A DNA stretch of 64,000 bases from Moniliella sp. 'wahieum' (taxonomy: Eukaryota), in assembly GCA_003971905.1 (NCBI GenBank), contig RSEE01000026.1:434001-498000 (forward strand), given 5' to 3'. The first letter of the stretch is position 1, and each line of letters starts with the position of its first letter. This document shows positions 1-59,860 of this stretch, piece by piece. Made by a program: the position numbers and the translations under genes. The notes beneath the pieces are model-generated. The model saw only the letters and a list, made by a program, of their open reading frames with translations. It searched no databases and was not told where the DNA came from.

Positions 1-563
1 GGTAGGTCAGCTGCTTGGTAATACCGAATGTCAAGGTGAATTGTGCTTTGGAGAGGCGAGGGCCACTTAACCCCCTCTAGTGGGCCACTATCTTGGCGCC
101 CCAACTCACTGTGTTTTCTGTTGGCAAGCTGAGAGAGTCTTCGAAACGCTAAGCTAAGCTGAACTACGCTAAGCTACGTTGATCCAACTGAGATGGAGCG
201 AATTAGATGGAGGATAGATTGCAAGATCCCATTGCTCCCATCAAATGATGCATCATGCAAGGCAAGAGGAAAAGGGACCGGGCTGCAAAGAAAGACAATG
301 AGACCGGATCACCAGCACTCGCACCGCACAAGAAAACTAGAAAAAAAACGTCGATGCGAGTGCCAAGATGAGGTATCCTTGGGAGAAGAGAAAAGAGCAG
401 AAAGGAAAGAGCACAAGACCAGCTTGCCGATCCTCTGGCCCGGGTGGCAGGGCAAAACCCGGCGGGCCAGGGGCAAGACGTTATAGGAACGGGAATTGGA
501 AAGGGAATTGGAATGGAAATCGGAACGAACGGACGCGCCAACAGAGAGATGGAACGTTAGGCG

Positions 564-1824
564 TTAGGCATCAAAACCCCATTTGACCGAGGCCGACGAG
601 GTGACAATCTTATTGTACTCCGACCCAACCGCAATAAAGTTCTCCGTCGTGTCGGGGACCCACTCGACCACCTGCGCCTTGGTCTTCTTGCCGTCGTCCG
701 TGACGATGGTGATCCACTTGCCACACGAGTCTTGCAACTTCTCATTCGGGTACGCCTTGGAGGGTCCAATGGCGACCGTGATGGTATCCTTGGGCGTCTG
801 GATCCCAGGGCACCACTCGGGATCAATCACGTCCCACCACTCGAGCGTGGCATTGTACGTAGCCACCGTCTTGGCCGCGTCCGAAGCCTTGGCGGAGGCA
901 GAGGCGGAAACTGACGAAGCAACGTGCGCAACCTTGTTCTCCACTTGCTTGGCTGCCGAAGACGATGCCGATTCCGACGCCGACGCGGACGACTTGGCCT
1001 GCGCCGAGCTGCTAGGACCGCAGGGGAAGGCGTACCGTCATCAAAGGACCATTCGACGTTGAAGATGCCCAGCACGTGTTCGGCCAGCTTGCCAAACAGG
1101 CCGTACGTCAGGTCAATGTCGCAGGCGTTGAGGCAGGTCTGGGTCGAAGCTGCCAGACGGAGCAAGCGAAGCGGTGTCAGTACGAGAGTTGGATGCGCCG
1201 CTATCCACGGGCAAGGTAGTCAGATAGTGAGGCAGTATACGTACGCGACTCGGGGCACTCGTCCATGATGCGCGCCTTTTGGCTGCCGAGAATACCCTTG
1301 ATGGTGATGGTCTTGGAGCAGAGCTTCGCGCGCTGATGCCCTGCTTGGCAAAGTAGTCGTAGCCAGGCGTGGCAAGAGCGACACCCATCTGAATTAAACA
1401 AACGGCACCACCACCACAAATCGCACAACAGGAGAGTCAGCAACCGTGTATCTCACGGTCCAGGACGGGAGCCACGGTGGTCGGTGCACTGGACCCAGGT
1501 CCTGGGCACCACAAATGAGCAAACGAGATGGAGAGGGGAGAGAATACGAACCGTGTTGTCGTTCATGAGCGTGCCGCAGCTGCCAACAGGGCTAGGGCCC
1601 TCGCTGGCAGGGTGGTAGAAGGTGGCCTGGCCCTGGATGCCACGGGCAGCGACCTGGGCGGAAAGGGTGGCGTTGTTGGCAATGTACTCATGGCGGCCCG
1701 GGCGGGGGGTGGGGTACGGCGCTGGTAGTGGCCGCCAACAGCACGGCGCTGGGGCGCGTGGTGGCCAGCGCGCACTGGACGCGGTGAGCGCGAGCAGGAG
1801 CGAGGTAAGGAGAGTGGACTTCAT
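564..1824 (-). CDS. Secreted RlpA-like/expansin-related protein with two double-psi beta-barrel (DPBB) domains; multi-exon, frameshifted
   Basis: Signal peptide MKSTLLTSLLLALTASSA from ATG at 1824. Domain 1: GQATFYHP..GSCG / LCSKTITI..ARIMDECP / DIDLTYGLFGKLA..GIFNVEWSF. Ala/Ser linker. Domain 2: CGKWITIV..KAQVVEWVP..VKWGF, stop at 564. GT..AG introns near 1390-1550 and 1202-1245. Confidence 0.75.
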
Positions 1825-3199
1825 GGCGAGTAGAGAGCGTGGAGTGGAGGTGCAGGGATGGTGGTGCAGGGGGCAGAGGACACACGATCCGGCGCGTGAC
1901 GCTACGGGCGGCGGGGAGGAGCGAGGTGGGGGTGTGTGGGGGGAGGAGGAGCGGGAGGGCTCTGCTGGTTCGGGGGTTAAAGCCCAAGGAGCCCACGGGC
2001 GAGCGGGTTGGGCTGGGGCGGGGTGTGCTGCTGCGGGCGCGCGCGGAGGGTGGATTTGACTGGGGCAGGCGACGCTGGCCAGGTGCCCGAGGGGCGGGCG
2101 GGGGCACGACAGCACACGGCGGCCGCGCACTGTCGCCGTACGAGGTACGCATGGTGGCCAGGGGGCCAGTGCGCGCCTCGGCGGCAGGTGCGCAGTGTGG
2201 TGTGGCGCCGCCTGCCAATCGGGCGGGTTGGTGCTGCCCACGCAGCTCCAGCCAGCAGGCCAGCCTGAGCCAGCAGGAGCCCTGCATCTGCATCAGCGCT
2301 CAGCCGCGCGAGCGCGGCCGGCTGCACACTGCCCGTGCCATCTGAGCCCGGCTGCTGTGCGCGGCCGGCACCGGCCGCCGGCGCGTCACCGGTTCCTCGC
2401 CCCTAGTCACCAGTCGGCCACTCTTGCCTGCTGCAGCAGGCCGACATGCGACATGCGAGGCGGCGCCTGCCTGGGGCCGCGGCTGTGGCCTGGTGCGAGG
2501 CTTCTAGGAACTCTCTGCCGTGGCGCCGAGCGCTGTTCGATCAGTACGTGCAGCAGTGGCCAGTGGCCATGCATACAAAGGGGAACGAATAAAGTTCTGC
2601 AGGCGTTCTGCAGCCGCCGCTGGCGGTGGCAGGCGCCGGCATGCGGGCCGTGTCAACGGCCGATCGGCGCTGGATCGGCGCGTCGAGGCACCTGGGCGCT
2701 GTGCGGGACGGAGCATGGCCGAAGCACACTGGGCAGGCGCCCCGTGGCAGTGTAGACTTGGGCTTGCCTGCGGCGCGCTGCCAACGTGCTCCGTGGCTGC
2801 TCGCGCACGGCCGCAGCACGCCGCAGCAGCCATGGCGAGGCTGGGCTGCAGAGTGCGGCCTAGTGCGCCTGCACATGGCAGGCTTGGTGCGTTGGGCTGC
2901 ATGCCTGGCCACGCACTGGCCAAGCCTCCCCTGGGCACGACGCTGGCACGACTGTGGGCACGACTGGGTGAGATCGAGGGTGGGCTGCCTTCAATGTAGC
3001 GCATCTGAGATCTGACGCTATCTAAGGTCTAACCTGCCACTCTGCTGCCATGGTGCTTGCCCCATTCCAAGCGGAGCTCAGGCGCTCCTCGGCTCTGTGT
3101 TGGTCATTTGGACCTCTCTTGTATTGCACCAGAAGCTGCTATTGACAGGCCCTGTACAAGCGCGCCACACGCACGTACCCGTCCACGCGCGTCCGCCCC

Positions 3200-3410
3200 T
3201 GTCACAGGCCTAGCTAGCGATGCTGGCGATGGTCGATGGAGATGGCATTCAAGAGCTAAGGAGAGCTAGAGCTATGGGCCTTGATAGGCTCCTGGCCTGG
3301 AGGCCAGTGGAAACCCGTGGAAGGGTCGGAACTCACTGCCCCGGTGCACTGTGTGGATCGGGCCACGTGTCACTGAAGGCCGATGGGCTCTAGACCACTG
3401 GTGGTCAACA
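3200..3410 (-). repeat. 3' LTR of copia element
   Basis: tgtcacaggcc...gtggtcaaca, identical by eye to 8226-8436; preceded on the minus strand by a PPT-like GGCCAGCGGGGG (3411-3422). Confidence 0.97.
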
Positions 3411-6400
3411 CCCCCGCTGGCCAGAGGTCTCAGTGGCACGATGGAAGGTTGTAACGTCCTCAAGTTGAGGCGAGGCAAGTTGGCCAGGAGTGAGACCTTA
3501 GTGGCTGGTTTGGTGAGGATGTCGGCCGGGTTCTCGTTTCCAGCAATGTGCGCGATTTTGACTTCGCCCGAGTCGACATGCTGGCGTACGTTGTGGTACC
3601 GGATGTTCAGCTCACGTAGTTTGCCCGTGCTGCCCACTTTTTCGGCCAAGGCAAGTGCCGCCATGTTGTCGCAGTACCAGTGTATGGGCTCGTCTGAGGT
3701 GATGGCACCGAGCTCCAGTAAGATGTTTTTAACGTAGTTCGCATCAATAGGCCCTCATATCCCGCCGTATATTCGGCCGCAGCAGTGTTGGTGACGCTCT
3801 TGGTTGACGCACGCTCCTCCAGGACACTGGAACCCCGTAGACGAAAAGCAGGCATCCCGACGTGGAACGCCATTGGTCAGGGTCTCCAGCCATCGGCATC
3901 CGTGTATAAGCGCGAGAGCGGTGCGTCAGGCTCGGTGTTAGTCGGAGACCGTAGCCCTTGGTACCGTAGAGGTAGCGGAGGAAGTTTGTTGCCGCAGCGC
4001 GGTGGGCCTTGGAGGGATCGGCAGTTGCTCGGCTTAGAGCTGAGATGCCGAACAGCGCATCAGGGCGGCCATGCGGGCAGCCCACAGCCCAATCCTACTT
4101 TGGCTTGGTAGTCGCGTCTCTCGCGGCAGTGCGGGCGGTTCGGGGTCGGTGCGCGCGGGGATCATCTTGCTGGGGTGGGGGAGGCCATAACCAGGGTGGC
4201 GGAACCTCATGTTTGGCAATGGATTCCTCAATGAATTTTGGCTGGCTAAGGTACAGTTTCCCGTTTATGGTGTCGTACTGGCAGCCAAGATGGTAGTGTA
4301 GGGGGCCGTTTCCCCACCTCGATATGGGTGTTGATCTCAGTGAGGAAGGAATCGTAGCGTGCGTGAGACGTCAGGCGATGAGAAGATCGTCGGTGTGCAC
4401 GGCAAGGAGGACCGTGTCGCCTTTACGGGGTCGGATGAACAAGCACGGCTCAGCCAGAGATTGTACAAAACCCATGTCTCCGCGGAGCAAGTCACGGATG
4501 AATACCGCCCAGTTTGCGCCGGATTGGTGGAGGCCATATAGGCTTTTCCGGAGACGCCAGACCTTGCCTTTTTCCTCGGGAAAGAATGGGGGTGGGCGGA
4601 GGTACACTTTTCCGTGAGGGGAGCGTTCAAATAGGCAGAGTGCACATCAGCAGTGAAGAGGTGGAGGCCGAACTTTCCAGCAAGGGCGATAAGGCTGAGG
4701 ATGGCAGGAGTGGCGCACGGCAGGGGCGAATGTTTGTCCCCATGTGTCAGCATCCTGCTGGTGGCCCCCGGCAACGGACGGGCTCGGTAGCGTAGGAAAT
4801 TTCCGTCCGCGTCCGTTTTGGTGTTGATGCGCCACAACCAATCAGCAGCTGCGCGTCTGGAGGGGTGACGACTTCGAATGTGCCGTAGCGGGCTAGGGTT
4901 CGATTTCCGTGCGCATCGCTCCAGCACTGGTTCGAATGAGGGGTGTGATTGGAGGCCCTTCATTGTCTTGGGTGCAACAGGTACTCCGTCCTTGGTGAGC
5001 TGGATGCGCTCGTGCGGCCCTGGCTCGCTAAGGGCGATCATCGCCTTGTATTCAGGTGGATGGAGACCGTCCTGTTGACCGGGCAGGGCAGTGTCGGGCA
5101 GTGGAAGCGTAGGCCGACGCAGACTACGACTACGTCAGGGAGGGAACCGGCAGCGCGCAGCGTGTGTGGAAGTCACCATCATGAGGGTCGTCCGCTACGG
5201 GGAGCTGTGCCCAGTCAAGGTCAAAACGGCGCTGGTGGGTCCGGGCGGGGTACCGTCTGGTGGGGGGGTGGTTGGATGGGTGTCGTTTTGTCTTGCGATG
5301 GTCGCGTCAGTATCAGTGTTGATTCTCGGTGGTGTGTTGGGATTTGCAACTTCAATTTTGTTCATTTTTTCTTCTCCCTTTTTGGTTTCAGTGTCAGTCA
5401 TAGTTCTGTCAGGCAGGGGTTGAGCGGGGAAGCGAGATACGTCAGGCGGAAAGCGGTCGGGGAAAACCTCGTGGTATTGGCGCTGGGTCCACTTGTATGG
5501 TTTTGCCCATTGGGATCGGAACGTGCCCATGGACGGGTCGTACACAGCCCAGCGCCAACCCTTTGTACCTCGACCTGCGTCGTACCCGACGAGCATGGCT
5601 TCGACAGCCCGCGGACTGAGCTTATGGTCACGTTGGTCCTGGGCCAGGTGAAGGTACGCCAAGGATCCGAAGGCGTGCATTGGCAGCGGTGGGGGTGACC
5701 CCTTGTACAGCTCAGCCCGAGATTGTGTGCCCTGGCGTGGAGATGTCGGTGGCATGAGGTTGTGCGTCCAGCACCCTGCCAGCAAGGCATCCTGCCACCA
5801 GTTTGATGTCGGGAGGCCCGAGGCGATGATGAGTTGGCGCGCGCGTGTGGTGATTGCCTGGATGGCTCGCTCGGCCACCCCATTTGATTGACTTTGGCCT
5901 GGTATGGTGGTTTCCGTCGTGATACCTTCGGATTCAAGGAACGGACGGAGTGCGCTGGTGAGCTCGGGGGCATTGTCTGTCTTCAAGATGCGAAGCAGAC
6001 GGTCCTTTCCGATGCGTTGCTCGCGGGTGATGAGTTTTTTCAGCTCCGCCGTGGCTTGTCCTTTCGTCTTTAGGGGAACAGCGAAGGTGTAACGGCTCCA
6101 GTCATCAACCGCGACCAGGGCGTATCCATGTCCCATGCCAGTGATGCGAGGGAGGTCGACTACGTCGGCGTGCAGTACTTCGAAAGGACGTTCCGAAATG
6201 CGGCGGCCGTGGCGCGAAGGGTGGCTGGGCGCTTTGGCCAGAGCTTTTGTGCAGGTGGGACAATGCCAGAAGGGGCGGATGCGTCGGATTTGGGCAGGGC
6301 TGACGCGGAGGCTCGCTCGCGCGTTGGCGGTTAGTGTCGGGAGTAGGTCTAGCGCGGCGTGGTTGTACTGTTGGTGAACGTACATGACGTGCTCGATGGT

Positions 6401-6847
6401 GTTGGCTGCGGTGTGTTGGGTGGCGACGGCAGCTTTGGCCGCGTGTTCGTTTGTGGGTGTCGGTTTCGGGACGATGTTCAGCTTGTATGAGGAATCCGCG
6501 ATTTGGTGATATTTGCCATGCTTGTCATTTAACCAGATACCTTTTCGGTGGGGGGCGAACCAGGATGCGTGGCCTGCGTCACTTATTTGCGCTACGCTCG
6601 TGAGATTGCTTGCTATGCCGGGGACGTATAGACTGCCGGGTAGGTCTACATGGATACATTTGCCGTCGGTACACTTGATACCGATGCTACATGTTCCGCG
6701 TCCACTGGCTTTAATATGTTTTCCATCAGCGATTTCGATTGAGCGGTTGCTGGGCTTGAGGGTTTTGAATACCCTGAGATCCTTCCAGATGCTAGGATCC
6801 GCGCCCGAGTCGTGACGAGACTGGATGTCCTGGTTGCCCGCGAGTTC
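3272..6847 (-). CDS. pol: Copia Pol: protease, integrase, reverse transcriptase, RNase H (several frameshifts downstream of the integrase)
   Basis: PR HDSGA..LYVPG..SNL. IN HHCC (HQQYNH..CPTC), HADV, LKTDNAPE, SNGVAER, MLVGY. RT ADVHSAYLNA, LRKSLYGLHQSG, VHTDD. RH YCDN, IRYH..ENPADILTK. Confidence 0.93.
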
Positions 6848-8078
6848 CTATTTGTCAGATAGGGCAAGGTCCACAGACAGGGTCTCCCCTTCGGAGACGT
6901 CGTCTTCGGTGGCAATGTGCGCTCGCGCGGAGCTGTTGCGGTGCCATTTGTTGTTCGAAGGAACCCCGGTGTGGCCGGACGGCTTTCTCGCAAGAGCACC
7001 CCCGCTACGGGGAGATGCACCGGCAGGAGGACCCCCGCTATGCTGCTGGGATCCCGCGCTGTCGTGTTTGCCAGCGCCCGAGTTGGCGGTCCGGGGGTGA
7101 CGGCCCCGGTACGGAATTCTGTACTCTGGGTCCGCTGGGATTCTCTCCACGTCTTGCATTGTCTCCGCCAGAGTCATGCTCTAGGCGGCGACGGTCACCA
7201 GGGTCGCGGAGGGCCCCGACGAGGATACGGCGGAATTGCTCGTCCGACATCGGTGTGGTTGCGCTGATCCGGTTGCGGAGCGTCCCCATTTCAGATAGGA
7301 ACTCGCTCCCGCTGCGCCGGTTTTGGTAGCAGTGGTGAAAGCGACTGGACAATTCATGATACGTCTTGCAGTCGACCGTACCGTATTTGTTTCGCAGGGC
7401 ACGGAGCAAGTCAGCTGACGTGTCAACGTTGTCCTGTGCAATAATGGCAGATTGAACGTCGTTCGGGAGGTGGGACCACAGAAGGTTCTGGAGGCGTAGA
7501 TCGAGGGACGAGTCGTAGTGTGTGTGACGATGGACCGGAGCGAACGATGTCCTTCGCGGCGGGGTGGATGCGGTCCAGGATGTTGAGGATGGAGGGCTCC
7601 CAGAGCACATATTCGGTGGGGTCGCGGAAGCGTCCTTGCGCGTCGCGTTGGTACGCTCGATCTCTTTTGACGCGCGTTTCTCAGCGTGGCGAAGCTCGGC
7701 CATGTCCTCACTCGCGGATGCAAGGGCCTCACGGGTGTTTTGCGGCTTCGTGAATTCAACGGCCAATACATATTTCTCCAACGCGAGGGTGAGCGTGTAG
7801 ATCCAATTTTCCTTTCCGCCCGGTGTTTTCTTGCTCTTCGGTCCATACGCCGCCGTGTGTGCATCCGTAGCGAACGAGCGGCATGTGGAGCGGAGATTGT
7901 CAGCGCTGGTGGGCTTGAACGCGCGGGTGCTTGCGAGGAGGTTGTCTCTGACGTCGGTGAGGGCCTGTTGCCAGGTCGGGTCGGAGACAGGGGTGGTGGT
8001 CGGTTCGTCGATGTCCTGCGCCTCTTCGATGACAGAGACTTCGGGAGGAGGGGTGTTTTCTTCCAGTTCGGGGGGCAT
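6848..8078 (-). CDS. gag: Copia Gag (frameshifted), ending at an in-frame TAG
   Basis: MPPELEEN... start at 8078; gag-like helices LQNLLWSHLPNDVQSAI..ADLLRALRNKYG; C-terminus ARAHIATEDD..LALSDK* at 6848-6850. No CCHC knuckle seen. Confidence 0.75.
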
Positions 8079-8211
8079 GGTGGCTGATTTTTCCTTTGTT
8101 TTTTTTTGAATTGGTTGGTGTGTGGTGCCGATGGTGGCGTTGGGGTGGTGGTGGTGACGGTGGGCGCCGATGGTGGTGCTGAGTATTGATCCTTTGCGCC
8201 AGTGGGGTGCT

Positions 8212-8225
8212 TCAGATTGTAGCTC
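8212..8225 (-). promoter_or_regulatory. Putative primer-binding site complementary to an anticodon arm (half-tRNA priming, anticodon GTA = Tyr)
   Basis: GAGCTACAATCTGA directly abuts the 5' LTR, with no TGG start. The complement reads TCAGA-TT[GTA]GC-TC: a 5-nt stem, a 7-nt loop and two 3'-stem bases. Confidence 0.55.
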
Positions 8226-8436
8226 TGTCACAGGCCTAGCTAGCGATGCTGGCGATGGTCGATGGAGATGGCATTCAAGAGCTAAGGAGAGCTAGAGCTA
8301 TGGGCCTTGATAGGCTCCTGGCCTGGAGGCCAGTGGAAACCCGTGGAAGGGTCGGAACTCACTGCCCCGGTGCACTGTGTGGATCGGGCCACGTGTCACT
8401 GAAGGCCGATGGGCTCTAGACCACTGGTGGTCAACA
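8226..8436 (-). repeat. 5' LTR of copia element
   Basis: 211-bp direct repeat of 3200-3410 with TG..CA termini. Confidence 0.97.
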
Positions 8437-9197
8437 GCCCCCAGTAGAACGACAGAAGCACTCTGCAAGCCCTCGCATGCCGCACTGGATCAACCGAAGA
8501 AGCTCGCCCATACCCTCATGCCCCGCACCCACAAGGCTGCAAGCTTCAAGCTTGTCAAACTAAGTTCACCCATTTTTCCACCTTTCTGCCGTTCCGTCCG
8601 AACAGCCCGCGGTAATCGGCGTAATCGCAGTCGATCAACAGGATTAGGGGGGTCTGAGCTGAGCTTATCCAATAAATCGCCGACTCACAATCCCTCGTAT
8701 TAGGAGTGTCCGCATTCATCAAGCACTTTCCGTTGCTGCGTCAATCGTTAAAATCAACAGTACACATTGTTTTCATGTTCTCCTCCAGCCGACCTTCCTC
8801 TATAGGCGACTGGTAGCAGAAGCCCATCGAAAAAATGACATATCGCACGACCACATATCCGAATTCATTCACGTTGCCTCTCTGGCTTGGAAACGAAAGG
8901 CAGAACTGCTACAATGCCATACCCCCCCTCCCACAACCAGTACACACGGAAGAGACAATCATATTGGCAAAATAGAGTCGTAATCGTTGATGGCGTTTAC
9001 AGTTTATTGGCACAACAGTCAACATTCAAAGTAGAGAGGGGAGTAAACAAAATGCCAGAGAGAGCCAACGGGTGCCAGTGGGATTACAGCCACTGAGGCT
9101 CCAGATGGTGGCCGGACAGCTCGATTATGCTGGGAGAGGGGAAAGAGAACCCGCCCAAAAATGAGGGGTATACACCCACCGAGAGCCGCGGATCCGA

Positions 9198-10266: not shown

Positions 10267-13200
10267 CTTTGGCAACTTGGTTGGGGGGGGGGGTTGGTGG
10301 TGCACAGGGCAACCAGGGACGACGGTTGGGGTGGGTGGAGGGTGGGTAGGATGCGGTTTGACCAGGAGGTCTGGGGAAAGTTACCGAGAGGCCTTCACTT
10401 CAGCCTTATATATACGGTGTTGGGGAAGGTGCGTCGCCATGTCTACCTAGTGGGTATAGGTGGCCTGTGGGTGCTACGTGTCTTGAGAATGGTCACAACA
10501 CTGTTGCCCTTTGCCTTGCAGCTTAGCCTGCAGCTTGGCGGCGCAGAGTACGGATTAAGGATCCACGTAAGCGCGTAAGCGCATCAGCGCAACGCTCGAG
10601 CCAGCTGCGGGTCAAGCAAGCATTCTTGCTCGTGCCTTCATTACCATTCCTACCTAGGTCGTCCAACTCTTTCTCTCTTCCCTCTCTGTCGTCAGCGTGT
10701 CAGGCAATCATACACGTGTGCAGAAGGCAATGCCTGTCCGTGCATCTGCCCCAGCATTCTACGCAGCTCAGTCTCAGCACTCTGCACTCCCAATAGCGAG
10801 ATTCGGCCTTCGGTCTGCTGTCCTCGGTACTCTGTGGCCCGACTGGCGTGACTATGACTAGCTAACGCAGTAACTCTAAACCCTAGAGCCTAGTAACTAA
10901 TAAGCAGTACCTCGAACCCCAATGGGCACTGCACCAGCAAGCGAGTGGGCTAGGCTCCACGCTTGTCGCGACTGGACCAGTACGCAGTCTCCCATGGTGC
11001 ATGGGCCCACCTCGGCTCCTCACCGGCCTCACCGGTCGGCGATCCTCGATCCTCGAGATCACCCATCTCGCATCTTCTCAGATCTCTCCACATTCTTGGG
11101 GCCCCGCACAGCCAGTAATACGAATGCTCAAACAGAGTGCTAGTGACTAGTGACTAGTGACTAGTGACTCGCTAATAGTGCAGTGCTTATAATAGGAACT
11201 AGGGAGGCCAGGCCTGAGACTTAGGCCCGAGGGAGCTAGTAAGGCAATCATGCACATGCATAGTGGGGGTACCTGGGAAAAACATCCGCCGTGTCTCGCT
11301 GCATGTCATGGCCCAGGTTGCGTTTGGCGCACACACAAGGGTACGCGCCCACGGCAAGGTGCTTGTGGGTCAGCACAGTGTCGATCCCAGGTTCTCCCCT
11401 GTGTGCTGCCCTCCGGCTCGCGGTCTTTCAATATTTTTGATGCTCGAGATGTCAACTGTCAACGTTTTGTCAACATACTGTCAGCATGTCAGACGGCATC
11501 TCAGATGCGCCGCCTGTCACACCCTTGCTCTAGACCGTCGAGGGGGCGGGGGAGTTGTTGCGCAGCGGGCGCACCGTCCACCGCCGGACCGAACACATAT
11601 GGCACCGCACCTCCTTTTATCATACCTGTTTACAGATGCTGGTGGGCGTACATCGTGTCTATCCTTGTTTCTCTCTGGCCGTTTAATGTCCCACTACACA
11701 GTACAGTCTGATCATCAAGTCTCTCCCCACATGATCCACTTTGCAAGGGACCACCGGTACCGTAGTGACACTTTCGGAAATATCTTGTTCGCACCATGCT
11801 CACGCAGCGTAAGAGAGGAAGGAACGCAGAAGTGGCCATGATGTCACATGTCACTGTATATATATGGGCAGAGAAGCGGCGCCTTTGCGAGAAGGGTGTG
11901 CGCTTCACTTTGTCTCTACGGTCGTGAGCTAGGAGTCACCACAGGTTGACTGTGTGGTCCCTGATTTGTTCTAGACCCTGTTGCCCCCCTTTGACTACGC
12001 TCCCCTTTCCTTCTCCATATGACTCTCGCATGTTCTCTTCTTCTCCGAGGCATATATACCTCGCCCCCTTTCCACTCGATGAATATGATCCTCATCCTTT
12101 CCCCCATCTCCATCTTCTTTTACGACATCCGCGGATGGAGGTCTTGGGGATCTTGACATGGTGCCAGTGCATGTGGAAGAAGATGAGTGTGACCTTCGAG
12201 GTCACTCGTCCTCTGTGACCTTGTGGTCAACGAGTGTGCACTACAAATGAGGTGGGGGACGCGGATGGCACAGGAAGAAAGGGAAGGAAAAGCTTGCAGG
12301 TGCTTTTTAGACTGTGGCTTTTATCATTTGACAAGTCGCTTTTTGACAACGCCGTAGTTGTCCCTTGGCATAGTGGGGAGGGGGGTGGGGGGCGAGAAAT
12401 CCTTCAGTGTAATTGTATAAAGGCCCCCACAACGTCGAACAGGATACCGATCAGATCGGCAGGAGGGGAAGCATAAGTACTAAGTCTGCATAGCCGAAGG
12501 AGATGACTGGTAGGGTCGTGGGAACATAGGGGTGTAGTGCGGCTAATACATGCACTACTAGTCGCCCGAACAGAAGGGTATCAATATTAAGCGCTTACGA
12601 GACAAGATAGGGGAGATGGGGGAAAGCATAGGAAGAAGGGAAATGCGACAAGAACAGCCTGACCGTCTTTATGCAGAGAACGTTAAACACGTTGAACGTT
12701 TGAACGCGTGCAATCAAAGTGTGCACCATGCCCCCTCGGGGTTCAACGTACGCTCAACCCACGCGGTGCTGCGCAGACGATGGTCTGCTTGCCGGCCGCT
12801 TGTGGGGTCCATGTGGCGCCGAGACGTGGCGTCAAATTTCAAACGTCAAGCGTCAAGAGCTAGCCCCCAGCGCCAAGCTCCAAGACGGCTACCGGGCTGG
12901 GGTGCGCAAGCGGGGCGCAGCAGGCGCAGCACGAGTGGGCGAGTGGGGCGAGCTTGGGTCCCAGTTCCCGATTACTTCCTGCTCCGAGCTCTAAAGCGCA
13001 CAAACGCTGCGCCCTTAGGCCTTACCTCAGCACGCAGCACACGGCTGCAGGCGGCGGGCGGGGGCGTGTGGGCGTGCCATCTGAAACCAGGCCCGCAGCA
13101 ACCGAGGCGCCGGGCGTTGTGGGCGTTGGGCGCTGGGGGGACATCATGCATCATGCATCACCCCCGCCGCCGTCACCCGTCAGCGCGTCAGCGCGTCAGC

Positions 13201-13334
13201 GCTATAACATGTCCCCGGCAGCCAACGGCCGGCTTGGATGCGGAGCACCGACGTGCATCCAGCCGCTAGCTACCCCGGCCCAATCGACCGCCACCATCCC
13301 TGACTCGACCTGGGGCGCCTCCGCCTGAGGCCTG

Positions 13335-14775
13335 ATGCGCATTGGATACGTGGGAAGTGGTGTGGTGCTCGTCGCAGCTTTCGTTGGTGCTTCCCGCGAT
13401 CTCTTGATCAACATCCCTGCTGCCGGCGATGCCATGTTGCTCACCCAGCCCTCGTATGAGTACGGCCCCGAGGGACCAGGCACGCTCAAGGAGATTTACC
13501 GGTGGCAACATGAGCACCGCGATGGCGAGTACGACTTGGGCTTGACCCCTGACGAGATTTCCTTTGATTCCCATCCCGCCCTCGACTGGGGCCAGGTCGT
13601 GGCTGCACCCCCAGAGCCTCCTGCTCCAGTGGGCATGTCGGAAGAGCGCCCAGTCACCTACGCCATGGTACGTCCCCCACCTCCTACTCCCCCTCATCGT
13701 CCACCATGTCTTGACAACGTGTTGCTCTCATCTAGCTCCTTGCCCACCAACGCGATTTTCAACAGGCCCTCGAGGAGGTCGATGCTATAACCAGCCCATA
13801 ACGTGTCTCTTGTGTCCCCCCCCCCCCTTGTCCCGAATTCATCTCTAGAGGCCAGAACTCAATGGATACTCCGTACCCCGTGCCCAACCCATCTGCAACC
13901 CATGTTCGTCGCCACCCCCTCCACTTCGAGTTGGGCAATAAATTGGCCCGCATAGCCCACCTTGGGCGGACGAAGGCTCTTACCAACGAGGTTGGGAGTG
14001 TGCAGACAAGGACCACAGACAGCCTGCGCACGTTGCTCGTCCTGTTCGTTCCGGTGTGTGCTAAGCTCAGCCTCGCTGGTCATACTAGCTACCTCATCTT
14101 TGTCCCCGGGTTCGTATTCTTTGAGTGGCTCGGGTATGGCAGCAGGAAAAATCGAGCCGTTTGTGTTACGAACCGGCGAGACGATCTGTTCGCTCGTCAC
14201 TTTGTGCCCACCTACTTGAGATCGAGAGGCGAAGATAGCTGCACCTGCCAGTGGTGCTTGACCGCGATTCCCAGCCTTGCGTTGCGGTACCGGTACAGAG
14301 CCGGATCAGGAGCACTACTAAGTGTCTTTGGGAATCGTGTCTTTCCCCATTCCACACAGCGTCACAGCCAAGGCCTCCAGTTATGTCGCTAGGGAGTTGC
14401 TGGTATTGGCTTGGCCGGCTTCTCCGAGGGTTGTTTGATCAGTTTGAGGGATCGGCTTGCACCGTCGTGGCTGGTGCGTCAAACGACCAACCGGAAGGAA
14501 AACGTACGCAAGCCCATGTCCCCCGGCACTTGCTATACAGTTTTTGTTGTCCCCGAGATATAGCGTTTGACAAGCGTGAGGCCTCAAGGACCATTCGGAC
14601 TCCAGGTCTCATCATGCATCACCGTCTTTCGTGGAGAACAAAATTGGGGTGGTTGAACGTTGGATCTAAAAGAAGTTTTCTTGTACACAAGGTCTCGCCA
14701 GATGAACAAAAGGTGGCCATCATACTGAACGGGCGCATTGTGGGTTGCAGGAACCACCACCGCACCAGAGCCTGA
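13335..14775 (+). CDS. Hypothetical multi-exon protein, boundaries uncertain
   Basis: Chain of protein-like + strand ORFs (13335-13790, 13862-14392, 14251-14775) with GTACGT donor-like sites near 13668 and 14504. No family recognised. Confidence 0.3.
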
Positions 14776-15447
14776 TGAGTATATACTGAGTCTTAGTACG
14801 AAGGATGTATGGTCGGCGCCAAACACTAGTTACTGTGGCCACGCTCAATTGGTCGCCTCCAACAAACAAGGAAAGACACGTCCCCTTCCGTGGCATGTGC
14901 TACAATGGGCCCATCAGCTTCCCCTTATCCCTTTGCGCGCGGTGAGCCAGACGGATTGGCGATTGAACCGCTCGGGAAACTGGGTTTAGGTAGGTCGGGG
15001 ACCACGGAAAAATGCAAGTGTAAGCTCTACCTCTCCATTGATGGTGGGATAGGAATGTCGCGCTGTCAGCGCATTCCAGGCCAGTCACGTAGAGACCCGT
15101 CAGCGCGTCAGCCCTTTAGGCCCTTTGGCCTTAGGGCTGGCTTCAGCACGCGGTGGACCGGTGGTCGTCCGACCACAACCTGGGTATATAGCTCTTCTCC
15201 CGTCCATTGCAGCTTCCAGGCCAAGTCGGACTGAGATCTCAGAATCTCACACCTGCGTAGCGCAGAAGCGAGACTGATCGAGGGCAGGGAAAAAGCAACT
15301 TTGAAAACACGACAATTTCCGCTTCATGGTTTCCGCCACTCTCGTCACGCGTCATACATCATGCATCATGCACCATGCACCATGCATCGTGCCGATTGGT
15401 GCTCGATGCTGGGGGAGCGGAGCGCGAGGGGCTCGGCGTTGTCTAAG

Positions 15448-15778: not shown

Positions 15779-16204
15779 TTTGTGCCCTTTTTCTTGCTCA
15801 ATGGACCTTCTCTTTGTGGATTGCTGGATTGTGGTAGCGGGCGGGTGCTTCAGGGGGATGGCAGGACGTAGTTGATTGTGGTGGACGGGGGCGGCTGCCT
15901 GATGGGAGCCAGCACCAATGTGGCCAGGGGAGCGAGCGGATGGACGGGCGATCGAGTGGATGGATGCACACTGAGTACTGAGTATCGAATGGGGATGCAG
16001 CCGGAACGGAAACCCTAGCGCTGCAAGCTGCTTCGGCACTGGAGCACTGGAGCACTCTAGGGCTCCAGCTCGCGTCGTCAGCGCGCAGGTTGAAACAATT
16101 AACTTTGAGGCGGCTTCGCGTCGCGTCCTGGGCTTGGACCACCACCTGGGCGTCTTCTGCTGCCGCCACTGGCTGCAATCCACCCGCGAGCCACGACTGG
16201 GACG

Positions 16205-20142: not shown

Positions 20143-20280
20143 AGGTCGGATGGTAGATACGATGGACTATGGAGTATGGACTTGGTACTGGCAAGAGAGG
20201 GAAATGGATTCTCGCTCGATTCAACGAGCACATTGGTGGCAGCTCGTCCAGCATAGCGAAACCTACCTATCTCTAGATCA

Positions 20281-20881: not shown

Positions 20882-21234
20882 CAACATAGAGATCACCGTG
20901 ATCCCTCATCGCCACGGATTCATTATTTTACGTTGGCTTGGTGGCATGTGAGACACGGTGTGACACGGTGATGGGCGCTGCATAGAAGCCAGACAAGTAG
21001 AGAAAGCGGTGGCTCTTGGTGCCCGCTATTGGATCTACTACTGCTTTCTGGCTCCGTCACACCACTGCTCCAAGATCCAGCAGGACAGATCATCCATTGC
21101 TGCAAGCCTCCCCAAGGCTTCCCCTTCTCCGTGCCACCACCAACCATCTACCTTAAAAGAGGCCTTCAACTGTCGTCAAAGCGGAATCTGCGCCTTTCCT
21201 CCCAACCACATACCACACTCTGTGCTTCACCATC

Positions 21235-30779: not shown

Positions 30780-30825
30780 CGAATCGAAAATCGAAAATCG
30801 AGAATCGAGAATCGAATCGAATCAA
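30780..30825. repeat. Degenerate (GAAAATC/GAGAATC/GAATC)n microsatellite
   Basis: cgaatcgaaaatcgaaaatcgagaatcgagaatcgaatcgaatc. Confidence 0.85.
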
Positions 30826-47713: not shown

Positions 47714-49970
47714 AGTAACAGTGATGGATGAAGGAACTGTGGCCCGCTGTAGTGAAAGGGGATTGGAGTGAAGAGTGAAGGGGTGTGAGGCGCCAATATG
47801 GGGAGGACGCGGTGGCGGTGCAGGGTCGACTTTGGGTGGGAAGGCGCTCCATTTATATGGCGTACAGCTTCCCTCTGTCCAATGCAGGATCAAAGAGGAT
47901 CAGCGGATCAGGGCTTAGCCTGAGCTGGATAGCCACCGTCACGCGTCGTATGGATCTCTCGCGTCCCAGAGAGCTTTGAACGTTGATGGGTGATGCACAT
48001 AGTGCCTGTAATGCGGCAATAAATGGATCATGCATCAGACATCAAGAGATCAGGCGTCGACGGATGCGTGCACTAGTAGCTGATGGTCCCAATAATTAGC
48101 ATGTCTATGCTGCCAAGCACAATGGATGCCCAGGCATGTTCGGACCGGACTCGGGTGGGCGTGTGTTGTCCGAGAGAAAACGGCCAAAAAAATGTCGCTT
48201 CTGGCTTTCGGCTTCCAGCTTCCAGGCTCAGCTTTCCAAGCTCTCCAGGCTTCAAGGGGTCCAAAGCTTTAAGCTTTGGCAAAGAATAACGAGTTGCTCT
48301 ATACCAGCTCGGCTACCTATACCAAGGCACGAGAAACAATGGGTAAGGGGATGTACAAGAGTGTACATAACGGCGTGTGCACTATGCCAGTGTGACATGT
48401 GACGTGGGCGATCGGATGTTTGGACGCTACAAACATATGTGCCTGTACCTCTGCGAAATAGGATAGGGCCACAGTGGGCAATGCACTGTTGGGGTCGGCA
48501 ACTTCTCGACTGAAAAACGAGTCGGCGATGACAGTTGCCCTGCCGCGCCGGCAGCCTCAGCAGACACAGGACGAATATATGGACTGTGGGGTTTTGTTGC
48601 CTTTGTGGGTGGCACTTGCAGTGAATTCAACGTTCAACTGTTCAACACGTTCACCACTCGTGCTCGCGCTGAGCGATCACAGGCCGATCATGGCCCAGGC
48701 TGATTTCCGTCTGCTTCTTAAGATCATAGTATAGGTGTGTCTCAGCGTGGTCGCGTCCTTTTTTGTGACGCCCCGGCGCCAAAAGGCCTGTCCCCCCGAC
48801 GGCCATCCCGCGTTTAGCTTCTCCATCCAAGCTCCGACGGGCCAATCACATGCATGACACGTTTCCAAAAAGGCGAGTCTGTGGCTGGTCGGGTTGTCGG
48901 TTCAGAGATATACTACCGGATTACCCTCGAAAGCTTTATATTTGGGGGGGCTCTCTATCTCGGCTAGCCACATCCTACTAATAGCACTTTCCACCACGTG
49001 GCAACACACCTTGGACCATTGCTATGCCGAAAGGCGATTGCATGTGTACCATGTGACATGCGGCCTCGCATACAACAGATGACATGGATGACAGCAAATG
49101 CGGGCTGTTTTTGTACGCTAACGCGCATGTAAAAGGCCTAGTGCTTACTAAGGCTTTGAGGCCTGAGGGACTGAAGCCTGACATGTGATGTGCATGTGAT
49201 GATCGATGGGACTTGTGGTATAGTGTACGCATACAAGAACTAGCGTAGCGGAGCTATGGTGATAGCGTTGGTTTTCCCCGAGCGGAAACTCTCCCAGTTA
49301 TATGACGAGATTGGTGTGGGTGTGATTATGATAGGAGCGTGTCGACCGGTCGCGATACTGTACAAAAGGGGAGAGACTCGAAAAAAGCGTGCAAGGTAAT
49401 AATGGTTGTCGTATTACGAGAAACTTCCAGAGGAAGGGAGAAGGGTCATGAGGTCATCGTGAGCCTCGTATAGAGACGTTATACTACTTAAAAGCATCAT
49501 GAGAGGTTGACGAGATATGACGATGACGAAAGGAGAAGAGGTCAGGTGTGGTGAAACAAGATCCCTCTAGGACCAGTCATTCGCTGGTGAGGAAGACATG
49601 GAGGAGAGGGAGGAGAGGAGGAAGGGAGAAGGAGGAACAGGGAGGAGGAACAGGAAAGAGGGCGATCCCTTTTATCATGATGAGGCCGTGATAATGACAC
49701 TTTCTCGGAGGTGTAAAATGAACGTATGCTGCCATGTTTTGTGGGCTCTGCTCTGCCCACACACACAAGCGTATCCGAGAGGGTGAAGTGAAAAAGGAGG
49801 CACAAACGCCCTGTGTAAGGTGGGATGATGAGAGCATCAACTGCAACTGCGCGTGTCGTAAAGCGAGATTCAGCGTGCAAACGTAAACAGCGTGGGAACA
49901 ACAGAGGATATACAGAGAAAGAAGGGGTATAGAGATCGATGCGATCCACAAATTAATACGTGGCACATCT

Positions 49971-51032: not shown

Positions 51033-53290
51033 GGTGCAAGAGGGAGGAAAGGGGGAGACAATTGAGGGAGAGGGAGAGGGGGAGGGGGGGTTATTCAAAG
51101 GGGAAACAGCACAGATAGAGACCCAAAAAGTAAGAAAGGGCGAATAAAAGGCGGAGGCGCAGCCGTGAGAAGAGTGATGGCAGTGGCGGTGGGGGTACGA
51201 AGACGATCGATCTGATGAGAGGTGGGAATTATATATTCTACTTCCTCAGAAAAAATTGCCAAGAGGCGCAGCGTTCTATCTCGCTCCGGATGTTGCTCCT
51301 CCGCGTGGCGCTGCTCTTCCAGGGCCCACAAGTAGCCCAGGAGTCTCTATATACTAGCCACCAATGCATACGTACAAGTCACTATTCAATATTCAAGCTC
51401 AGTCGAAGTCTGTGTGATCGATGATCTGAGAGAGATGATCGATGATCTGAGAGGCAAGGTAAAGTGAGAGAAGCAAAACAGTATGCTTTAGGTTTGTGGT
51501 CGAGTACTACAGGGAAGAAGACACACATCAAAATCTTTTCCCCAATTAATGATCGAAGATGATGACTCGATCGATGATGACTCGATCGCTCTATAGGCGA
51601 CTCGTTGACACTACATATATTTTCACACATGTATATGTTACGAGCCAAAATGCGAGTCGGCGAGCCAGGATGAGCCCATAGGCTCTCCTTGCCGCCTTCG
51701 CCTCATCGACTCATCCGTTTTCTTCAATACCTAGTACTACTTACTGCTCTCGACGACCGCAGCGAAAAGCAAGTTTCCAATCCCCTCCGCCCCTCCGAAT
51801 TTTTGACCCATATGAGGAGTCACATATGGCAAACTAACTGAATGCCTCGTCAGAGTCATCATCATTCATCGAGCACATGAACATGTGGACCTTATGGTCT
51901 GTAAAACCGGAGGAACCCAAGGGTTGGGTGATGAACCTCTGGAAATGTAGAGCAATGCAATCGCCGTGGTGGTGGTTAGGGCTGAGCTTATGCCACGCCT
52001 AGAGACAGGGGTTCAAACCAGCCTGCGTATACACGTCGAGGCTTCGGAGGTCTCAATTAAGGGGCAAAGAGTGATAAGGCCTAAGGCCTAAGGTACCTTG
52101 GCCTGTGTACGGGACGGCGGGCCCCATGCATCATTTCCCTTGACATCAACGTCATCAACAGTCGCCCGAGCCAGGCAAGTATATCTTTCATCGTCTGCAT
52201 TCTCTGGCTTCCTTCCATTCCCCCTATACCGCCTCTATATTGTATTGCTTCCCCCTTTAGCCACTTAAATTCATGTATGACCTCTGTTTAGTAGTAGGCT
52301 TGTGCGACTTGACTCCCACGGTCCACACAGTTCCGTCTCTCGCTCTCCTCCCGCCTCCCCTCCTGTCAATATTGTCAACGTCGTCATCCAGCAGCTTTAA
52401 TTGGAGTCGCCATGTCACATGCCACAAGGCTCCAGCTCCTTGCTGGGAGCCTCTCGGGCTTTGAATCCTCTTCGAGGGTACACACAGTGGGTCCAGTTCC
52501 GGATCGGGCGGGTCTTTGGCTTGCTGACGGAGAATTCCGTCCCATACATGGTCGTCTGTACATTGCGGCCTTCGGTCGCTGGCAGGTTGTGCACCTCGGC
52601 GGGGGCGGAAGCTGATGGAGTCTGGAAGGAGGCCAAGACAAGGCGGGGCGGTGGACAGCGAGCGCTGTCGAGGGTGGAAGGGCCAGAACTGCGCCGCAGA
52701 GACACGGCAGGTGCAAAGTGGAAGACCTTGGCCAGATACAGTGCGCAGACTGGACGCGGGTGCTGGCGGCAATGGCCGTCGGCGCCCGTCTCCAACCTTC
52801 GCCTCACCTCGCCTCGCCTGCCAAGTGTCGTTAATGGCGGTGTGTGACGGGCGGAAAGGAAACGCGTAGGACCTAGCAGGCGGGACACGGGGGACATCAC
52901 ATGTCAAAGCATATATCACACTGCTGCTTACTCATGGGATGGCACGCGACATCGCTGCAGTCCACGTGGCGCTGCCTGGCCCGCCGGCCACTTTTGGGAG
53001 GCGGGCCGAAGCCACGGGCCAATCACCGAAGCCAGTGGACACGATGCATGATGTGCGCCACACTGGTGCTGTGCGGGGGGTCTGAACCTTGTCCGCCTTC
53101 AGCCGCAGGGCCTCAGCCTCAGCCTCACGCCGCATCACCCACCAGCCCTCATCGGTGCCAGGGCTGCTTCGGGCCACGTGGAATGCAGGCAGAGGCAAGG
53201 GTGTGTGACATCGCCCAGGCGTTACGCTTTAACGCTAAAAGGCGTTAAAGTTCTCCTATGCCCGCTCCCCTTCCTCCCTCCCACCCCGAG

Positions 53291-56346
<3,056 letters not shown>

Positions 56347-57069
56347 TTATCTGTTTGCATGCGGATCCGGCCCTCGTGTGGTCGTTCCCCTCGCCTCCTC
56401 CGACTTCCTTTGGGGTGGGTGGATATCGGTCCTGTTCGCCGCGCTTCTTGTACACCCAGCTTGTGGCTGTTGCTAAATCCATTTTACTGCATGTCACTCT
56501 GCTCATTCCATGTGCCGTTCAGTTGATCAGATAGAGAGCATGGAACCACTTGAATGAGACAAAGAAACCTTAGAAAGAGAGGTGGCCAAAAAGGATGCAT
56601 GTCGATGGTGGGAAAGTACATCCCCCCGCCAAGGCTCATACAACCCCCGATCCCATCATTCCTATGCATCGATCCGGCAAGTACAACTCTGGGCGACCGC
56701 ATGCCTGACTACAACCTGTGACAGCTAGCCGAATGCAGAGAGAGAAACTGATTGGTATATAGGCCGTGAACGTTGAACATAACAAGAGAAGGTAGCGGCC
56801 GGTGACGGCGACATGGGTGATACGCGTAGCGGAGGGGAGGACTTTGAAATTTGAGGGCTAAAATTTAAAGCCCATCACGTGCAGGACGACCAGGGGAAGG
56901 CTATGTCCACGCGGCGAGAACTAGGCGCAATAAATAGAAAAGATGCACTTCCCCAGTGCTAGCGATTGTAACCCTATGTCCTCGCCCCTCTCTTCCTTTA
57001 CCCGACGAGCGCTTGCTCCGCTCTCTTCCTTTCTCCCCACGCGTCCCTGCCTGCCTGTCCATCATCGCA

Positions 57070-57904: not shown

Positions 57905-58869
57905 ATGGAGTCAATGGAGGAAATGGTTCGGCACCATTGGCTCATTGGCTTGGTGACCAAGAAGGGACGCTGTCGAGCCTCAACCGTTCGGCTCTTTGTC
58001 GTTTTGGACGGCGACCAAAGTTGAATACCTTTGCATGGTATGCGGTTGAAGTGCTCTTTTCCGAGATGCTTCCTTTTTCGGGCGACCTATCCCCGATTCA
58101 AAAATCAACTTGTTCTTGGCTTTGGCCTTGCTGCAAAAGCGTGTGGGTTCGTGGTGTTGTATTGTACGTAGTCCGTTAGACGCTAGACATGCATACCGTG
58201 CAACAGCCATGAATCTGCGGAAGGCAGGAATACCATTCGTACCATGCAATGCCTCAACGATGGTTCAAGGTGCATAGTGCGCACACTGTGGCGGAAAAAG
58301 CTGGTTGAAGATTCCAGCTTGTGAGGTTACCGAGTGTCACATGTCACGCCAAAGCGCCTGCCTGTTCGGCGGATACACAGAGTATATATGGTGTGAGAAC
58401 TGCTGAGACATTCATGTCCGCGAGAAGCTAGTAAGTTCGGCCTGTGTGAGCCTCTGGTCCGACGGACAAAACGAGTCAGCGCCTAGCTAGTCAGACCAGT
58501 CACTGTACTTCTATACTAGTCAGATCTCAGATCTCAGATCATCGATCACAGATCAGATCCAGATGTCTGGCAAGTCCGAAATAGCGAGGTGTGGTGGGAT
58601 ATTGAAGTGTGTGGGGGATTCTGGCAGAGCTTGAAGAACATGAAGGTCGACGCGAACGTTATTGAAGACGCTCAAGGCTGAAGGTTGAAGGTTGAAGCTG
58701 AAGGTTGAACTTCAACCTCTCTTGAAGAGTCTCACGCTGAAAATCACCAGTGTTGTTCGCGGGTCTCGCTGTCTCAATCGCGCCCGCGCCCTAGTTCACC
58801 ATGCTCAACGAGCACCCAGCGACTCACCTCTCGGCTCTCTCAGCGCTCGCAGTTCACGACTGCTATACA

Positions 58870-59169
58870 ATGATGTCTACAATGAAATTCATGACACTGT
58901 ATGACTCTTTCGAGCTTCCGAAGGACGGAGAGTGTTTGGTGTGCACTGTGTCTTATTCCGGAGGAAATAATTTTGTCACACCAGTATTGCAGCAGCCAGG
59001 GCCTTTTAACATCGTTCCGCGTCTTGGCGTGGTTGGCTTGGGCGCGGAGAACGATTGCTGGTGTAACTACGTATCTATCGCCAACATGCCCCATCAATGG
59101 TGCGCCATGCAGTATCCCCCCACGGCCTCAAGCCCCGCCCACAGTCTCCTCATCGACCTCATCCAATAA
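58870..59169 (+). CDS. Possible small Cys-containing hypothetical protein
   Basis: Protein-like ~100-aa ORF between RPS0 and PYC; no family recognised. Confidence 0.2.
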   Translation: MMSTMKFMTLYDSFELPKDGECLVCTVSYSGGNNFVTPVLQQPGPFNIVPRLGVVGLGAENDCWCNYVSIANMPHQWCAMQYPPTASSPAHSLLIDLIQ

Positions 59170-59860
59170 ACTCTTGGCAGCTATATTATTCTGGAGAGCA
59201 AATTACCAAGTGCATATGATAATGAGGTGATCGATGACCGGTGATCGATGAGCTGAGCTCTGAGCATTTGCCCCTCTATGTCGAACTGTCGACCTATCCT
59301 GCTCCCCTCGTTCACTGAAAGCATTAAGCATTGCCACTCCGCTCGTCGTTGTCCGCGACGGGGAAAAGACGCGAACGGTAAACGGGAACCATGGCAAATT
59401 GTATACTTGTACCAAAATGACAGACTCAGAATGCGGACTTATTGGCCCGGCCCAGCGCCAGTTTGAATGCCAGTCTAGCACCAGGGCAGTGTGGATGCAG
59501 ACAGAGCCCCCATGCGGGTTCGCGCCAAGAAGGGCACGGGGGCCCACAGGACGGATGATGAAGTCCAGGCCGCCGTTTGCCACGGCGGCTTGGCGCGAGT
59601 GTGCGGCTTGTGCGGCCTGACGCCCAGGCGGACATGCAAGCGGACACCAAGCCATGGACCCTTGAAATCATGGGGGGCGCATGGCGCCAGTGTGCACGGA
59701 CGTACGTGGTGGGGTGGCTGCGCCGGTGCGATGCTGCTGCCGGTGCCTGATTGCTACCTGCTTTCCAATCGTGCGGCTCCTTCGGCCTGAGTTCTGCCCA
59801 CCACCACCTTGCCTCCTCTTCCCTTCTCTCCCACCTACTGCCACCACGTTTGGAGGTACC

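Follow-up and report, generated by a model that had tools for sequence, protein, structure and literature searches.

Palindromes between repeated TNA triplets as likely mutational scars in non-coding DNA of Moniliella sp. 'wahieum'

The transposases of PIF/Harbinger elements are IS5-like DDE enzymes that need a T and an A in their target and accept any base in the middle. P-nucleotides are palindromic bases that come from hairpin ends opened off-centre, and HIP1 is one fixed short palindrome that is highly iterated. In this study, a stretch of 64,000 nucleotides from Moniliella sp. 'wahieum' (GenBank assembly GCA_003971905.1, contig RSEE01000026.1, positions 434,001 to 498,000 of the forward strand), referred to as the window, was investigated for a ten-base motif in which a 4-bp palindrome, the core, stands between two TNA triplets, N being any base. 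We observed that the excess of this motif is real and lineage-specific, and we regard breaks at TNA that left a mutational scar as its most likely origin. Full-text literature searches gave no description of the motif.

As described for mPing and Pong in PMC4561436, TTA, TAA, TCA and TGA are all usable for the 3-bp duplications of these elements, with 5' overhangs that stem from the target site duplication as the proposed product of the break; in the same source, the footprints of Ac/Ds are given as flank-derived palindromes that arise via hairpins. The unit that we recognised is a 7-bp addition in which TNA is directly repeated and the palindrome is built from the dinucleotide of one flank, either flank being usable, and its reverse complement. 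It resembles the PIF/Harbinger group (Pong, mPing, Tourist) in its 3-bp direct duplication with required T and A and a free middle base (PMC4561436). On the other hand, excision in that group is described as precise (PMC2836001), whereas here both TNA copies stay and 4 bp are added; an extended palindromic target is preferred there and not here, TGA and TCA are favoured here, and neither an element nor a transposase was found in the window. The footprints of Tc1/mariner and Sleeping Beauty are similar in their very uniform order of duplication, short palindromic filler and duplication (PMC7827188), but their filler consists of the terminal bases of the element and their duplication is TA, while the filler here is flank-templated and varies from site to site. 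The footprints of hAT elements (Ac/Ds) and the P-nucleotides of V(D)J recombination share palindromic bases taken from flanking DNA and the off-centre opening of hairpins (PMC4561436); there, the bases at the break, at the end of the duplication, are inverted with variable outcomes, whereas here the bases that are copied are found 2 nt past TNA and the outcome hardly varies. HIP1 is comparable in that short palindromes are hugely over-represented in one lineage, but in place of its fixed sequence we found 15 cores, direct-repeat flanks and non-coding sites only. The footprint thus differs from the known kinds in its kept TNA duplication, its flank-templated palindrome and its very high density with no element in the window.

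Abundance and specificity of the motif

All results presented here come from the one 64-kb window, which has a G+C content of 57.6%, and from 602 kb of control DNA, namely 76 metagenome loci that encode relatives of pyruvate carboxylase (602,499 b, mostly fungal). The null model consisted of 100 dinucleotide-preserving shuffles of the window. The terms intergenic and non-coding were defined through Pfam-supported open reading frames (ORFs) only. Codon-usage scoring was too weak for mapping coding DNA. An earlier note on this stretch had counted the motif by eye at more than 60 loci, with fewer than about 10 expected by chance. This count holds well, as the window contains 85 such ten-mers against 7.39 ± 2.49 (maximum 15) in the shuffles, and all 17 example coordinates in that note are occupied by the motif. 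The form with two identical TNA triplets was recorded 76 times, against 2.15 ± 1.24 in the shuffles and 2.76 per 64 kb in the control DNA, representing a 27- to 35-fold enrichment; these 76 hits make up 65 loci, comprising 56 single, 7 double and 2 triple units. As had also been noticed, every possible palindromic core but TATA occurs (15 of 16), and the two triplets are usually the same, N being identical on both sides in 76 of the 85 ten-mers and complementary in six. The nine ten-mers with differing N compare with a chance expectation of about five; as this class does not exceed chance, the window shows no enrichment of full 10-bp palindromes.

The enrichment is confined to one combination of flank, core and spacing. 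Non-palindromic cores between TNA triplets were not enriched in the window (103 against 118.2 ± 10.9 in the shuffles), and the ratio of palindromic to non-palindromic cores is raised in the TNA class only, where it reaches 85:103, or 0.83, compared with 0.04-0.10 in the other 15 classes of the form XNZ...XNZ. The comparison with non-palindromic cores and other flanks, which the earlier note had proposed as a check, therefore left only palindromic cores and only TNA flanks enriched. Among spacer lengths of 0 to 8, length 4 alone stood out, with 129 identically flanked cases against 37.6 ± 6.6, and the other lengths displayed at most the triplet periodicity that coding repeats predict. Variable-length footprints, sought as cores of 5-40 bp with complementary ends, were not enriched in the window except where double units produce them. 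Within the control DNA, 26 palindromic and 388 non-palindromic cores were found, which is the neutral proportion of 1:15 and shows no enrichment.

The motif is also restricted in its location. A uniform distribution would place 22.3 of the 85 hits within the Pfam-supported ORFs (16,817 b in total), yet none lies there, and none lies inside the copia element at 3199-8441, in agreement with the earlier remark that the young retroelement and the long coding sequences appeared free of it. Absence from coding DNA is expected of a frameshifting insertion that carries stop triplets. The motif adjoins both 5' and 3' ends of genes.

The flank rule and the decay of units

The two bases that adjoin the ten-mer repeat half of the core, its first dinucleotide when they stand on the right and its second when they stand on the left. 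This flank rule was observed on at least one side in 52 of the 65 loci (right 31, left 33), comprising 19 loci with a match on the right only, 21 on the left only and 12 on both sides, while 13 loci have neither; it holds in 45 of the 56 singletons, and in the control DNA only 4 of the 26 hits display it. In 23 singletons the match extends over exactly 2 nt on one side (12 right, 11 left), with no extension at all on the other. It follows from this rule that the real unit is [TNAwx][x'w'][TNAwx], where wx is the flanking dinucleotide and x'w' its reverse complement. Taking both strands together, 117 twelve-mers of the form TNAwx-NN-TNAwx were found, in which the central NN matches the reverse complement of wx in 82 cases and that of TN in 2, and equals wx itself in 3 and another dinucleotide in 30. 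The suggestion that symmetry and not sequence is conserved is only half right, since the two bases beside the site supply the template for the core. Each unit yields a 6-bp palindrome, A-core-T.

Some other products were considered and set aside. A hAT-type hairpin at the end of the duplication accounts for just the 2 spacers of 117 noted above against the 82 that copy the flank; its product TNA-TN'A is not enriched (40 against 37.4), nor are the classes with spacer 0. A 5-bp insertion product, TNA followed by the reverse complement of the flank and TNA, was met in 9 of 30 cases, mostly within arrays or with a GC spacer, and the class is not enriched. A double-hairpin product, whose core would join the reverse complements of the left and the right flank, was found in 9 and 4 of 53 and is unconvincing. 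A 5-bp target duplication would need an asymmetric target, with T at position 1 and A at position 3, which a symmetric enzyme would not be expected to give.

The right and left classes are balanced, showing no strand bias. With respect to composition, N is unbiased after normalising (TGA 18, TCA 16), and the core dinucleotides track the local background with the exception of scarce A/T-only pairs (6 against 12.5 expected), a scarcity that fits a base-paired 2-nt step. TGA and TCA are used over TAA and TTA at 56:10 where 517:207 are available, about twice their availability. The GTAC core is linked to TAA or TTA flanks (4 of 10 against 1 of 56), with p = 0.0013 before correction for 15 cores. 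On the non-copied side, a purine precedes TNA in 32 of the 40 one-sided loci (p = 0.0002), with G in 21 of the 40; the base after the unit shows no bias. Left and right polarity are not significantly clustered along the window, a hand count giving 18 runs where about 21 are expected.

Relatives of the motif with one mismatch numbered 97 against 51.6 ± 6.2 expected, an excess that fits decaying scars. A period-7 direct repeat is retained by 16 and 19 of 53 non-palindromic TNA...TNA ten-mers, and the window holds 194 period-7 runs compared with 76-91 at periods 8, 10 and 11. Among these 194 runs, 53 contain the exact motif and 23 its one-mismatch form (76 together), while 118 have no recognisable motif, against a baseline of about 84; a period-7 excess was not found in the control DNA. 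A single core occurs in 8 of the 9 arrays, as the flank rule predicts, since a flank-templated event beside an existing unit would copy that unit; slippage would have the same outcome. Period-7 arrays of units that resemble mutated versions of the motif were also observed at 30187-30218, 30782-30820, 15367-15390 and 43680-43700, with units (TCA-TGTA)n, (TCGA-AAA/GAA)n, (TGCA-CCA)n and (AGCT-CCA)n, respectively. Since neighbouring units have the same change in common, this suggests that arrays expand after mutation. The two arrays at 58520-58555 and 59227-59264, upstream of pyruvate carboxylase and about 680 bp apart, are inverted copies over 30 nt (77-87% complementary); this relation may be due to chance, a TCA array being the reverse complement of a TGA array.

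Proposed break repair at TNA and competing explanations

We interpret the motifs as mutational scars and not as a signal, namely as decaying scars of 3-nt staggered breaks (or nicks) at TNA that follow the PIF/Harbinger target rule and are repaired by a 2-nt snap-back or hairpin; we give this reading a probability of roughly 0.55. A PIF/Harbinger-type break is proposed because the target rule given for mPing and Pong is likewise a T-N-A duplication whose middle base is free, and a fold-back or hairpin step because flank-derived palindromes mark such steps in Ac/Ds (both PMC4561436). The event would begin with a break staggered by 3 nt, or with a nick, on the 5' side of the T in TNA; the source of the break might be the excision of an element, an abortive attack or a domesticated enzyme. 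One recessed 3' end would then fill in the TNA overhang, and the filled end would fray and snap back by 2 nt on its own strand, so that TNA forms the loop. The 5' TNA overhang, now free, could re-anneal with the other end and be ligated, after which the 2-nt gap would be filled and sealed, leaving a mini-hairpin loop of 7 nt on one strand that would become an insertion at the next replication. Later, point mutations would erode the copies, which would now and then expand into short arrays with a period of 7. A formally equivalent route would pass through an end closed by a hairpin, the tip of which would lie 2 nt past TNA; as with P-nucleotides, the hairpin would be opened at a distance of 2 nt from this tip. 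On paper, the snap-back route would yield the observed product with N preserved and with either flank usable.

The earlier note had named scars of a nuclease or transposase cutting at TNA, repaired via a hairpin or template switch, among its candidates. This proposal is partly supported, the anatomy of the unit speaking for it with its direct 3-bp duplication, its flank-built palindrome and the halo of one-mismatch copies, but no enzyme, element or empty site was seen in the window. Several observations weigh against the interpretation given above. PIF/Harbinger excision is reported to be precise in 109 of 110 events in yeast (PMC2836001). No DNA-transposase domain was detected by Pfam in the window ORFs of at least 80 aa, a scan from which about 40 of the 117 ORFs of at least 150 aa were left out (mostly alternative frames over scanned regions), and the same scan gave no hit for a DDE_Tnp_4-type transposase or a Myb-like second protein. 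Nor did the 64-kb window yield an element that combines terminal inverted repeats with a TNA duplication; TNA duplications with exact terminal repeats of at least 8 bp amounted to just four chance-level pairs. The extended palindromic target preference of PIF/Harbinger is absent as well, the window offering no symmetric context around the motif and only the one-sided purine at position -1, an asymmetry that would not be expected of a symmetric double-strand cut. The snap-back itself would have to rely on a stem of 2 bp around a loop of 3 nt, a thermodynamically weak structure. Thirteen of the 65 loci, the mixed array at 59228 included, break the flank rule. The status of the unit as a 7-bp insertion is deduced from its anatomy, as no empty or filled orthologous site was seen; a search of the window for paralogous copies that might show an empty site gave only the two identical long terminal repeats of the copia element, a coding 12-nt repeat and motif arrays. 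The one-mismatch excess is about 0.6 of the exact excess against about 1.1 in a rough steady-state calculation, for which a recent burst, turnover or some selection may be responsible.

A further step, which we regard as doubtful though possible, is that the lineage has an active TNA-directed nuclease, either a domesticated or element-free PIF/Harbinger-type enzyme or a nickase, that writes precise flank-templated 7-bp insertions into open non-coding DNA.

The one-sided purine may point to a single-strand nick at R^TNA, R being a purine, and leads to the main rival explanation, in which a site-specific nickase or a covalently 5'-linked enzyme (HUH/Rep-like or topoisomerase-like) would nick at this place, followed by displacement synthesis over 5 nt, a 2-nt turn onto the displaced strand and rejoining. 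A one-sided event of this kind fits the purine bias of the non-copied side better, it agrees with the failure to find either a transposase or an element in the window, and by our reasoning the route would give the same product with N preserved. Nevertheless, the final joining is not a normal ligase substrate, and we know of no enzyme of this kind with so short a site. The TNA rule, moreover, directly fits a known transposase family as described in PMC4561436. Taken together, we hold this explanation to be unlikely, while being the strongest of the competitors to repair of staggered breaks at TNA.

Classical cut-and-paste excision footprints with a TNA duplication, in which the core would represent the two terminal bases of each inverted repeat as in Tc1/mariner, are considerably less probable. 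The link between GTAC and TAA/TTA flanks could mean element families with their own target taste, and the 13 loci without a flank match would be at home in this explanation. In the other loci, the core equals the adjacent flank dinucleotide where chance would give about 12%, and a filler of the Tc1 type is excluded for these because element ends cannot know the flank. The 15 cores, with their smooth and composition-like spread, would in addition need at least 15 families, and no matching element lies in the window.

A functional cis-element or structural signal under selection, be it a regulatory site, a chromatin or methylation mark or a HIP1-like repeat, is slightly less probable still. In its favour, the motif is confined to non-coding DNA, each unit makes the 6-bp palindrome described above, and exact copies exceed one-mismatch copies relative to the rough neutral steady-state figure. 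Against it, the core has no fixed sequence and follows the bases beside it, the flanks repeat each other directly and so leave no dyad for a dimer, the motif stands beside both 5' and 3' gene ends, the one-mismatch excess is clear, and the motif excess was not found in the 602 kb of control DNA. The shape-read chromatin or methylation signal analogous to HIP1 that had been offered as a candidate is not supported in view of this combination of flank-dependent core, direct rather than inverted flanks and decaying copies, whereas the view that the motif is not a fixed binding site is borne out by its variable core, its directly repeated N and the chance level of full 10-bp palindromes. Generic replication slippage, a period-7 minisatellite or an assembly or sequencing artefact is the least probable explanation, as the overall period-7 excess with its 118 motif-less runs and the nine array loci stand against 56 of 65 loci that are single units (which also speaks, as had been claimed, against an ordinary microsatellite), against the fact that slippage neither makes a palindrome nor requires T and A, against the lack of enrichment of non-palindromic cores and other flanks, and against the consideration that an artefact would neither avoid ORFs nor obey the flank rule.

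Loci, neighbouring sequences and biological meaning

The loci are given here with a sign for the flank that matches the core, (+) for the right, (-) for the left and (.) for both, neither or mixed. Right-flank matches (+) are displayed by TCA-GCGC-TCA at 2293-2302, whose core dinucleotide is repeated in the right flank, and at 40044-40053, TAA-GTAC-TAA at 12474-12483, TCA-AATT-TCA at 12832-12841, TGA-GGCC-TGA at 26276-26285, TGA-GATC-TGA at 27106-27115, TCA-TCGA-TCA at 29440 together with TGA-CATG-TGA at 29458 (29440-29467, right flank each), TGA-CATG-TGA at 29799 together with TGA-AATT-TGA at 29813 (29799-29822, right flank each), TCA-CATG-TCA at 44652-44661, TCA-ACGT-TCA at 48627-48636, the double unit (TAA-GGCC)x2-TAA at 52075-52091 and TGA-ACGT-TGA at 56767-56776. 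Left-flank matches (-) belong to TGA-GATC-TGA at 3006-3015, TCA-CATG-TCA at 11844-11853 and 58337-58346, TTA-GGCC-TTA at 13015-13024, (TCA-TGCA)x2-TCA at 13144-13160, TGA-GGCC-TGA at 13326-13335 and 24360-24369, TCA-TGCA-TCA at 14612-14621, TTA-ACGT-TTA at 24460-24469, TAA-GTAC-TAA at 30029-30038, TTA-GTAC-TTA at 39659-39668, TGA-TTAA-TGA at 40779-40788, (TCA-AGCT)x2-TCA at 43635-43651, (TGA-TCGA)x2-TGA at 44242-44258, TCA-AGCT-TCA at 44404-44413 and TGA-CATG-TGA at 48393-48402.

Under the third sign (.), both flanks match at (TGA-CTAG)x3-TGA (11144-11167), TGA-GTAC-TGA (15972-15981), TCA-GGCC-TCA (29362-29371), TCA-TGCA-TCA (37190-37199), TGA-CTAG-TGA (39561-39570), TCA-AGCT-TCA (43697-43706, preceded by CCA-AGCT units that are T to C variants, and again 44942-44951), TGA-GATC-TGA (44117-44126) and TGA-GGCC-TGA (45020-45029). 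Neither flank matches at TGA-CCGG-TGA (29041-29050 and 40722-40731), TTA-GATC-TTA (29955-29964), TCA-CGCG-TCA (41091-41100), TAA-GTAC-TAA (41280-41289), (TGA-CGCG)x2-TGA (41481-41497), TGA-ACGT-TGA (47977-47986), TCA-TGCA-TCA (48028-48037) and TCA-CATG-TCA (52897-52906). Mixed loci, likewise (.), comprise 15345-15368, with TCA-CGCG-TCA (left flank) and TCA-TGCA-TCA at 15359 (both); the cluster at 26369-26416, with TCA-TGCA-TCA at 26369 (right) and 26393 (neither), TCA-GGCC-TTA at 26400 (N differing) and TTA-GGCC-TTA at 26407 (both); 44032-44058, where (TGA-TGCA)x2-TGA (right) abuts TGA-TCGA-TGA at 44049 (left); 49157-49188, with TGA-GGCC-TGA at 49157 (right) and TGA-CATG-TGA at 49179 (neither); 51386-51445, with TCA-ATAT-TCA at 51386 (left) and TGA-TCGA-TGA at 51415 (right) and 51436 (both); 56845-56868, with TGA-AATT-TGA at 56845 (left) and TAA-AATT-TAA at 56859 (neither); and 58520-58548, with (TCA-GATC)x2-TCA (right) and TCA-TCGA-TCA at 58539 (left). 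The array TGA-TCGA-TGA-CCGG-TGA-TCGA-TGA at 59228-59251 (.) is the only one with mixed cores and breaks the flank rule. Finally, TGA-TGCA-TCA at 246-255 (.) has non-identical N and belongs to the class at chance level, and the other eight non-identical-N ten-mers start at 12581, 12588, 14577, 15232, 26400, 37963, 38997 and 45813. A (CATTAG)n hexamer microsatellite at 29738-29785 adjoins several motif units.

The long exons of the window are fungal and encode pyruvate carboxylase, a P-type ATPase, ribosomal protein SA, SNF5, a fusion of PALP and peptidase M20 (PALP-M20), RNase T2 and DUF3533, in addition to the copia element. The best named relatives of the pyruvate carboxylase are Ustilaginomycotina with 83-85% identity (Tilletia, Ustilago, Ceraceosorus, Jaminaea). 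By contrast, the PALP-M20 fusion ORF at 21428-23506 has its best relatives in Aspergillus and Penicillium with just 45-51% identity, and no basidiomycete is present among its 120 best matches, while the pyruvate carboxylase of the same window is nearest to smut-like fungi; the mismatch may be caused by patchy distribution or by gene transfer. The copia-type retrotransposon with long terminal repeats (LTRs) occupies 3199-8441 on the minus strand and contains RVT_2, rve, Pol_BBD and SH3_retrovirus domains; its two 217-nt LTRs are 100% identical, indicating a very young insertion. A 625-bp element at 20269-20893 consists of two inverted arms of about 160 nt each (92-97% complementary) around about 300 nt, with an internal ORF of 165 aa that has no Pfam hit and with neither a TNA nor another clear target duplication at its ends, and it may be a foldback-type element. 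At 16681-17100, a repeat with a period of 12 nt (and 18 nt) occurs in about 20 copies within a long ORF, upstream of the SNF5 domain, and is probably a low-complexity coding repeat.

If the motifs are scars of breaks at TNA, one type of scar that is readable from sequence would record thousands of past DNA breaks per genome (our own estimate, extrapolated from 65 loci per 64 kb), and this fungus would hold a natural record of the sites where a TNA-specific enzyme has acted and of the repair of staggered breaks. The combination of a kept duplication with a flank-templated palindrome would then form a third class of footprint beside the two textbook ones, the element-derived and the hairpin-derived, and it would supply promoters and terminators with new palindromic sites through mutation. 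Should an active TNA nuclease exist in this lineage, its rate per site would be of the same order as that of point mutation, a rough figure obtained by setting some 65 intact scars against about 20 kb of non-coding DNA, and the snap-back of 2 nt at a 3-nt overhang would be a previously undescribed repair route. Such an enzyme would also leave a new endogenous mutational signature, making palindromes of 4 to 6 bp and period-7 arrays that would serve as raw material for regulatory sites.

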